Source of the DNA: Escherichia phage skuden
DNA length: 64,000 nucleotides
Sequence record: MN850585.1
Direction: 5' to 3' (one strand)
The position numbers and the translations under genes were made by a program. Of the stretch, positions 28,935-29,029 are shown in pieces (the first letter of the stretch is position 1; each line of letters starts with the position of its first letter). The notes beneath the pieces are model-generated. The model was not told the DNA's origin, did no database searches, and worked only from the letters and a program-made list of their open reading frames with translations.

Positions 28935-29029
28935 GTGAAAGAGGTCTGAAGTTGTGCCGCTAACTCAACTCCGTGGAATTTGTTACGGTCTTCAGTTGAC
29001 ACCAGCGGTCTTTCACTTGACCTCTGAAT

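Follow-up and report, generated by a model that had tools for sequence, protein, structure and literature searches.

A conserved, structured RNA between two tRNA genes of Felix O1-like phages

The stretch of DNA analysed in this work, 64,000 nt from Escherichia phage skuden (sequence record MN850585.1; the whole stretch is called the window), contains a 95-nt spacer RNA, E1, between two genes of a tRNA operon. E1 forms a conserved RNA structure specific to one strand; it encodes no protein and is not a tRNA, and it constitutes a new, narrowly distributed RNA family embedded in the tRNA operon. The reading that we favour, tentatively and with a confidence somewhat short of even, is that E1 is a small non-coding RNA gene of this polycistronic operon, which would act in trans via an apical module used for docking. 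In the numbering of E1 used below, nt 1 corresponds to position 29029 and nt 95 to position 28935. This corrects the original prediction on one point, as the tRNAs, and hence the spacer RNA, are read on the minus strand.

The spacer of the window was identical (100%) to that of Salmonella phage Felix O1. A search with E1 matched 259 phage records, 130 at an identity of at least 99%, 104 at 95-99%, 19 at 90-95% and 6 at 80-90%, whereas an identity of at least 99% over the surrounding 601 nt was reached by only 9 of 308 records. When 11 distinct loci were aligned, the pairwise diversity of E1 was 0.037, versus 0.004-0.13 for the adjacent tRNAs, and by these comparisons E1 is conserved at about the level of a tRNA. 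The 80-90% matches came from Avunavirus-like phages of the Vequintavirinae (Av-05, TH18), in which tRNA-Gly(tcc) lies directly before E1 while a 75-aa open reading frame (ORF) and the gene of a DUF7338 protein, and no tRNA, come after it. The element was therefore kept in these phages without tRNA-Thr or tRNA-Val. The block common to the Av-05-like and Felix loci comprised tRNA-Tyr (79% identical), tRNA-Gly (88.5%), tRNA-Ser (79%) and the DUF7338 gene (74% at the nucleotide and 79% at the amino acid level), so that the whole block was exchanged or inherited as one unit. Within it, the 27-nt apical core of E1, GUCAACUGAAGACCGUAACAAAUUCCA, was identical in Felixounavirus and Avunavirus, compared with an identity of 74-88% in the surrounding block.

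In the sister genus Kolesnikvirus, represented by phiEa21-4 and Hafnia phage SPARTY, the gene order was Gly-Trp-Thr-Val-Leu with a Thr-Val spacer of 7 nt, and both E1 and DUF7338 were absent from the tRNA cluster of these two phages; relative to Kolesnikvirus, E1 is an insertion. In phi92-like phages, tRNA-Thr was 96% identical and the similarity ended where E1 would begin. Since Kolesnikvirus has both tRNAs, and the phi92-like phages have tRNA-Thr, without E1, the element is not required for their processing. Comparison of the loci thus shows that E1 is dispensable for the processing of tRNA-Thr and tRNA-Val in the sister genus and has been kept in a different context in the Vequintavirinae. 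When patterns of the core were run against IMG/VR, GTDB genomes and JGI metagenomes, only Felix-like and Av-05-like copies came up, and no further copy was detected by R1, a covariance model built from 12 E1 variants, in the window, T4, three T4-like DUF7338 loci or Kolesnikvirus.

Structural analysis showed that E1 folds better than chance. The minimum free energy (MFE) of the minus-sense RNA was -30.7 kcal/mol, compared with -20.8 +/- 3.35 kcal/mol for shuffled sequences (z = -2.96), and only 1 of 200 shuffles was as good. The plus strand folded about equally well, so that folding energy alone leaves the strand undecided; the model R1 scored 118 bits on the minus strand versus 15.9 bits on the plus strand. 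Folding with covariation over homologous phages, as proposed with the original prediction, was carried out on an alignment of 17 distinct sequences, in which two Av-05-type rows were padded with N to keep the register. A nested, long irregular hairpin, the rod, was common to the MFE fold and the RNAalifold consensus (Table 1). Its base is the closing stem P1, which consists of the complementary stretches AGAGGTC and GACCTCT that had been pointed out in the DNA, and its apical hairpin P4 corresponds to the predicted pairing of CCGT (28971-28974) with ACGG (28985-28988), 10 nt apart. The 10-nt apical loop of P4 was invariant in every copy seen. The other predicted hairpin, AGTTG (28950-28954) and CAACT (28966-28970), 11 nt apart, is also present and was paired in all 17 sequences; it forms P3', an alternative to the interior of the rod. 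The complementarity of GTGAAAG (28935-28941) to CTTTCAC (29010-29016) was found in the sequence as well, but its pairing was not conserved: among relatives, the 3' tail of E1 reads TTTCAC, TTTCAT, TTTAAT, TTTAAA, TTCAAA or TTTTCAC, and the Av-05 copy has TCTATC there.

Compensatory two-sided changes were observed once each in P1 and P2, with G-U forms seen. In P1, the pair G8-C87 was replaced by U8-A87 in the Av-05 lineage (Av-05, TH18), a double transversion without a wobble intermediate, and the same pair was G-U in one locus (L078); the outermost pair was often broken, and a divergent contig (L077) retained only 5 bp. In P2, the pair G24-C71 changed to G-U in one sequence (L092) and to A-U in another (L074). 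P3 showed a wobble change only (U36-A60 to U-G), with the terminal pair broken in two sequences, and in P4 the pair G44-C57 became G-U in Av-05, next to two breaks seen in single sequences; overall, the breaks in P3 and P4 amounted to three singletons plus two broken terminal pairs. G-U pairs turn into A-C mismatches on the plus strand, and it is therefore the tRNA-sense RNA that has this structure. The original prediction had been made to depend on whether related phages conserve the paired regions; this was examined, and they do.

We conclude that P1 and P2 are real; the interior of E1 either has the form of the rod or alternates in equilibrium between this form and P3'. P3' excludes P3 and most of P4, its 5' strand being common to both, and crosses P2. 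A different explanation of E1, which we consider improbable, starts from this second form. E1 would be a bistable or tRNA-minihelix-like RNA that switches between the rod (P2/P3/P4) and a state in which P3' is stacked on P1, with one nucleotide between them, like the T-arm on the acceptor stem, and in that state it could act as a mimic or decoy for an enzyme that recognises tRNA. P3' was paired in 119 of 119 cells of the alignment, although four of its seven pairs vary: pair 60-80 passes through A-U, G-U and G-C, and pair 59-81 was seen as G-U, G-C and A-U. These changes, however, are all transitions opposite G or U, which keep the pairing regardless, and the evidence is therefore weaker than the count implies. 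A CAAC(U/C) box occurs twice in E1, on either side of the central (A/G)GUUG; P1, with 7 bp, has the length of an acceptor stem; and 46 nt lie from P1 to P3', as read from the sequence, versus about 41 nt in a tRNA. The energies differ between phages. In Av-05, P3' was predicted to be better than the rod by 1.2 kcal/mol (-24.1 versus -22.9 kcal/mol), whereas in Felix the rod reached -30.7 kcal/mol and the fold with P3' forced only -23.6 kcal/mol, a gap of about 7 kcal/mol at which the probability of P3' was about 0. P2, which P3' crosses, covaries too, and E1 has no T-loop, CCA or G3-U70. An H-type pseudoknot of P2 and P3' was judged unlikely, as by our own reasoning a loop of 2 nt across a 5-bp stem is sterically doubtful. 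In a more specific version, to which we give slightly less credence still, the two-state E1 would serve as a decoy or inhibitor for a host factor that recognises tRNA, for example a defence nuclease directed at tRNAs or an enzyme of tRNA processing or repair, and would have been acquired as an accessory anti-host module and exchanged between Ounavirinae and Avunavirus with the tRNA block.

The original prediction had described the spacer as lacking a recognisable T-loop and as no canonical tRNA, which was borne out by ARAGORN and Rfam on the tRNA-sense strand. ARAGORN made no call there either at its defaults or at relaxed thresholds of 70-80%, with introns allowed or not; in its metazoan-mitochondrial mode four calls appeared, which were spurious and lay without exception on the opposite strand. 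The tRNA family RF00005 had no match to E1 at E<=10. In the Rfam scan that had been proposed, no family of Rfam 15 matched E1 at its gathering threshold, and at E<=10 only two meaningless partial snoRNA fragments appeared, on the wrong strand. By the features of a cloverleaf, the 7-bp terminal stem is present and the T-loop and anticodon arm are missing; there is no encoded 3' CCA, UUCAC following the terminal stem with a tail that varies among relatives. The suggestion that E1 might be a degenerate tRNA was thus abandoned, as no cloverleaf, T-loop or anticodon arm was found even at relaxed thresholds and the element is conserved like a functional gene. A tRNA-Trp relic was rejected likewise, E1 having no resemblance to the tRNA-Trp of phiEa21-4 (Kolesnikvirus). 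More broadly, E1 could be a leftover that no longer functions, derived from a tRNA that has degenerated or from a repeated spacer hairpin that has decayed, and carried by linkage; this is consistent with its insertion relative to Kolesnikvirus, with a 9-mer common to E1 and a family of repeated hairpins in the operon, and with the presence of tRNA debris in the cluster (a permuted T-arm and acceptor fragment at ~30745-30800). We regard it as quite unlikely, since E1 shows tRNA-level conservation over hundreds of genomes of two subfamilies (Ounavirinae, Vequintavirinae) with compensatory changes, carries no tRNA traces detectable by ARAGORN or Rfam on the tRNA-sense strand, and has an interior that does not drift, whereas those of the repeated hairpins drift freely.

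A short protein gene or a site acting at the DNA level is a highly improbable account of E1. The candidates were an 18-codon GTG ORF on the minus strand, a 60-aa ATG ORF at 28925-29107, a plus-strand frame reading GICYGLQ, and a promoter, terminator or recombination site. GAGG stands 4 nt ahead of the GTG, and some GenBank records annotate a hypothetical protein over E1. The copies, however, measured 94, 95, 96 or 97 nt, with single-base indels within every candidate reading frame, and the Av-05 copy has different stops in these frames; length differences of 1-3 nt among the copies rule out a coding role, and the coding ORFs of either strand were rejected because their frames are broken among relatives. 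Moreover, the 60-aa ORF extends through tRNA-Thr, the G-U pairs become mismatches in the other strand, and E1 contains no match to the intrinsic terminator or sigma-70 promoter consensus on its minus strand. The 21-mer CTGAAGACCGTAACAAATTCC of E1 matched six bacterial genomes exactly. The plus-strand reading of this core, GGAATTTGTTACGGTCTTCAG at 28975-28995, translates to G-I-C-Y-G-L-Q, and all six matches, in metagenome-assembled genomes (MAGs), lay within the GICYGLQ active-site motif of glutamine amidotransferases, on the opposite strand. A wide distribution of E1 was therefore not accepted, and the 21-nt identity with six unrelated bacterial MAGs was judged coincidental rather than homologous. 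Four other resemblances were also dropped. The boxA-like CUCUUUCAC at the 3' end of E1, similar to that of rrn and lambda, was no better than chance (130 matches with <=3 mismatches versus 106 in shuffles); the likeness of GAAGACCGUAACAA to 16S ribosomal RNA 1490-1505 is an 8-mer only, expected by chance, and gave no blast match in E. coli genomes; the complementarity of the loop to MicA spans 8-9 bp and was not significant; and the integron attC-like boxes GTTRRRY/RYYYAAC agree at 7/7 and 5/7 positions in a virulent phage with no integrase.

Maturation of E. coli tRNAs involves RNase P at the 5' ends and RNase E together with exonucleases at the 3' ends, and it is from this established pathway that we infer the release of E1 from the precursor. 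E1 would be co-transcribed with the tRNAs from the sigma-70-type promoters upstream; the RNase P cut at the 5' end of tRNA-Val would make its 3' end, and the 3' processing of tRNA-Thr its 5' end, giving an excised, presumably stable product of ~86-95 nt. In the rod, P1 (7 bp) and P2 would present the apical module, which consists of P3, the GAAGA bulge, P4 and the 10-nt loop. Most likely, this module would dock a partner, a protein or a complementary RNA, in a sequence-specific manner; through it, E1 would have a role in trans during infection, be it that of a decoy, a sponge or a riboregulator, rather than help to process its neighbours. A trans-acting RNA with specific docking is favoured because the loops and the bulge are invariant, not the stems alone. 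Of the possibilities first proposed, the small stable RNA is favoured over the processing element because of the invariant loops, the compensatory changes, the Avunavirus context without a following tRNA and the absence from Kolesnikvirus.

Several points weigh against a trans-acting small RNA. The independent covariation events are few, essentially two lineages plus singletons, and most changes in E1 are transitions that would be tolerated anyway via G-U; for the interior, the fold could be that of P3/P4 or that of P3'. We found no RNA-seq or Northern blot of any Felix O1-like phage. A search for targets in the window with RNAduplex gave a best energy of -23 kcal/mol, inside the range of the shuffles (-21 to -28 kcal/mol), and a blast of E1 against E. 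coli genomes, a search that is blind to short seeds, gave no match. Four other hairpins of the operon with GAAGACCGU and a similar succession of helix, bulge and helix could indicate a common role in cis, in processing or stability.

The repeated hairpins, of the form CAGAAGACCNNNUACAGCAA...NNNGGUCUGG, were located by a pattern scan, with four matches versus 0.23 expected, in the Glu-Met and Met-Asn spacers and the Asp-Lys gap. Each has an outer stem of 4 bp, an AGA bulge and an inner stem of 7 bp, and the stems covary between copies and between phages: the outer helix was UUAC/GUAA, UGAC/GUCA, GAGC/GCUC or UUGC/GCAA, the inner one contained CGU/ACG versus CAA/UUG, and one copy had a G-U pair. 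The interiors of these hairpins, of 40-110 nt, are rich in AT and vary widely. The scan recovered 1-4 such hairpins per Felix-like locus, all inside the tRNA cluster, and none was seen in the sampled Kolesnikvirus tRNA-cluster region or in the sampled Av-05-like loci; the family is absent from Rfam. E1 is like these hairpins in its strand, operon and lineage, in the string mentioned above and in the order of outer helix, purine bulge and inner helix, and unlike them in its invariant 10-nt apical loop and in two extra enclosing helices, P1 and P2. The model R1 did not detect the repeated hairpins. We estimate the chance of such a 9-mer match between E1 and the hairpins at ~0.004, and the likeness suggests a common origin or a common recognition factor.

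These hairpins bear on the explanation that E1 is a cis-acting element of processing or stability, which guides or insulates endonucleolytic cuts, blocks exonucleases or marks the junction between the tRNAs and the DUF7338 mRNA, and is degraded after excision. We consider this a serious possibility, although on balance unlikely. The string and layout that E1 and the four hairpins have in common suggest that a single factor acts on all of them in the transcript; in Av-05, E1 is located exactly at the tRNA/mRNA junction; and E1 and the DUF7338 gene co-occur in both lineages and are both missing in Kolesnikvirus. Kolesnikvirus, however, processes Thr-Val with its 7-nt spacer, two or three tRNAs lie between E1 and the DUF7338 mRNA in Felix, and DUF7338 is widespread in T4-like phages without E1. 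Furthermore, the other hairpins keep their stems and have highly variable interiors, whereas the loops and the bulge of E1 are invariant, which a mere insulator would not need.

The DUF7338 protein of the window (PF24027, E 2e-61) has 185 aa and an apparently hydrophobic N-terminus, and is encoded at 28204-28761 on the minus strand, inside the tRNA cluster. Three T4-like phages were checked for homologues, which had 56-60% identity and, in two of the phages at least, lay within or beside the tRNA region; tRNA genes are annotated near DUF7338 in VR5 and PMBT1, and none in the STML-198 stretch.

Among known systems, the closest is that of T4, whose tRNA region encodes two stable non-tRNA RNAs of unknown function, RNA C (species 1, 139 nt) and RNA D (species 2, 119 nt) (PMC3014915; PMC9697503). 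E1 resembles them in context only. Like them, it lies on the tRNA strand inside the tRNA cluster of a virulent coliphage and has no promoter or terminator of its own, and for E1 co-transcription is likewise predicted. E1 has a tRNA on either side, whereas the T4 RNAs follow tRNA-Arg at the 3' end of their cluster; in RNA C a T-arm (CCGGGUUCGAAUCCCGG) can be recognised and the terminal stem resembles that of a tRNA, whereas E1 is without a T-loop; and E1, with its 95 nt, is shorter than both. Homology to rnaC or rnaD was not detected, as R1 found nothing in the T4 tRNA region and the folds differ. The favoured reading of E1 as a trans-acting RNA has a precedent in E. coli, where the tRNA spacer 3'ETS-leuZ of glyW-cysT-leuZ is a sponge of small RNAs (Lalaouna et al. 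2015, as cited in PMC13501541). 3'ETS-leuZ is Hfq-associated, pairs with RyhB and RybB, and forms a 3' external spacer with a terminator at its end. It follows from this precedent that tRNA spacers can act in trans. E1 is likewise a tRNA-precursor spacer by position, for which release by processing and a function in trans would be analogous; unlike 3'ETS-leuZ, it is an internal spacer, is rod-shaped and has no U-tail. The passages of the Felix O1 genome paper on tRNA, small RNA, tmRNA, stem-loops and noncoding sequence do not mention an RNA at E1, and neither do the tRNA passages of the wV8 paper.

The phage of the window is a Felixounavirus (Felix O1-like, Ounavirinae). The 601-nt stretch round E1 matched 308 phage records, nearly all of Felixounavirus and relatives within the Ounavirinae, and its best match was Escherichia phage warpig (99.5%). 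ARAGORN found 25 tRNA genes at 26845-31675, every one on the minus strand, and Rfam confirmed 23 of the 25 and placed nothing else above its gathering thresholds. Along the direction of transcription the order is Thr, E1, Val, both programs agreeing on the two tRNAs that delimit the predicted 95-nt spacer. The accompanying statement that tRNAs elsewhere in the cluster are 2-10 nt apart held only in part: thirteen spacers measure 1-9 nt, but one measures 31 nt and eight larger gaps measure 83, 91, 238, 247, 255, 428, 585 and 752 nt. The 95-nt Thr-Val spacer is unusual within the cluster, yet not unique. Promoter-like sites of the sigma-70 type lie upstream of E1 at 30327-30299 and 31822-31702. 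No promoter or terminator was predicted inside 28935-29029 on the minus strand, where the tail holds only three U, and tRNA-Val and tRNA-Leu can therefore be transcribed only by reading through E1.

Table 1. Features of E1 and its surroundings in the window
Feature	Positions	Strand	Nucleotides of E1	Remarks
E1, whole internal transcribed spacer RNA, 95 nt	28935-29029	-	1-95	AUUCAGAGGUCAAGUGAAAGACCGCUGGUGUCAACUGAAGACCGUAACAAAUUCCACGGAGUUGAGUUAGCGGCACAACUUCAGACCUCUUUCAC
P1, 5' strand AGAGGUC	29019-29025	-	5-11	closing stem, 7 bp
P1, 3' strand GACCUCU	28940-28946	-	84-90	closing stem; RNAalifold
P1b, short helix		-	12-15 with 78-81	not conserved
P2, 5' strand CCGCU	29004-29008	-	22-26	covariation
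P2, 3' strand AGCGG	28957-28961	-	69-73	covariation
Variable-length junction after P2		-		GGUG, UUGAG, UUUGAG or UUGGG among copies
P3, 5' strand UCAACU	28994-28999	-	31-36	MFE and RNAalifold
P3, 3' strand AGUUGA	28965-28970	-	60-65	same bases as the 5' strand of alternative helix P3'
Purine bulge GAAGA, 5 nt	28989-28993	-	37-41	invariant; within the string GAAGACCGU
P4 hairpin CCGU-AACAAAUUCC-ACGG	28971-28988	-	42-59	stems 42-45/56-59; apical loop AACAAAUUCC, nt 46-55
P3', alternative hairpin: GGAGUUG, 11-nt loop, CAACUUC	28948-28972	-	58-64 with 76-82	paired in 17 sequences
tRNA-Thr(tgt) with encoded CCA	29030-29105	-		ARAGORN and Rfam; directly upstream of E1
tRNA-Val(tac)	28860-28934	-		ARAGORN and Rfam; directly downstream of E1
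Repeated spacer hairpins CAGAAGACCNNNUACAGCAA...NNNGGUCUGG	31423-31513, 31263-31345, ~30860-30960, ~30720-30860	-		pattern scan

The tRNA cluster is a hotspot for the gain and loss of cassettes. Some relatives (Felix O1, L005 995-1423; PHB11, BPS15Q2, SFPB and S19cd) have an insertion of ~420 nt between tRNA-Gly and tRNA-Thr, just upstream of E1, which carries an ORF of the HNH endonuclease or endonuclease VII type, and an extra tRNA-Arg after tRNA-Leu(caa) is present in some relatives and not in others.

A tag frame like that of transfer-messenger RNA (tmRNA) was observed at 30214-30249 on the minus strand, in the gap from tRNA-Ile to tRNA-Arg(tct) (30096-30342). It reads AAAUAAAU-GCA AAC GAC AAU GUU UUU CUG GCA GUA GCU UGA UAG, which corresponds to ANDNVFLAVA followed by two stop codons, and lies just downstream of a near-consensus promoter, TTGACA-17-TATAGT, at 30327-30299. 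Rfam gave sub-threshold scores at the frame, 17.3 bits (E 2e-4) for tmRNA and 24.5 bits for permuted tmRNA, and ARAGORN called a tmRNA at relaxed thresholds only, borrowing the adjacent real tRNAs as the tRNA-like domain. The frame was kept in 45 Felix-like loci with synonymous and stop-codon changes, and two Kolesnikvirus loci had ANDAQFLAVA. An ssrA gene has already been reported in phage Moogle (PMC4319497).

The permuted tRNA-like stretch at ~30745-30800 on the minus strand lies inside a hairpin with its halves at ~30857 and ~30727. A T-arm (GAAGGTTCGATTCCTTC) and the acceptor 3' strand ACTCGGC come first, and the acceptor 5' strand GTCGAGT and a D-arm (TGGTGTAATGGTAGCAC) follow, in the reverse of the normal order; no tRNA was called there. 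The stretch may be what is left of a tRNA, or it may provide the acceptor part of a tmRNA-like RNA made of two pieces. In addition, a short conserved motif, (G)GTTCTTACGAG(A/T)(G/A)TC(C/T)TT, was found at 27927-27957 and ~30955-30985 on the minus strand and at ~2165-2200 of another locus (L072). This motif is repeated among the tRNA spacers of Felix-like phages and of phiEa21-4, where it might form a small hairpin or serve as a signal for processing.

Felix O1-like phages are classic typing and biocontrol phages of Salmonella and E. coli, and in hundreds of genomes E1 is unannotated or mis-annotated as a hypothetical protein. With E1 there is, besides RNA C and RNA D of T4, a second clear case of a conserved non-tRNA RNA in the tRNA operon of a virulent phage. 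Unlike in T4, a natural comparison is at hand, as a sister genus is without E1 and an unrelated phage group has acquired it. If E1 is a mere processing hairpin, the result would be an ordinary one; if it binds a host factor, this would be relevant to RNA-based counter-defence and to the question of why tRNA clusters are present in phages at all.

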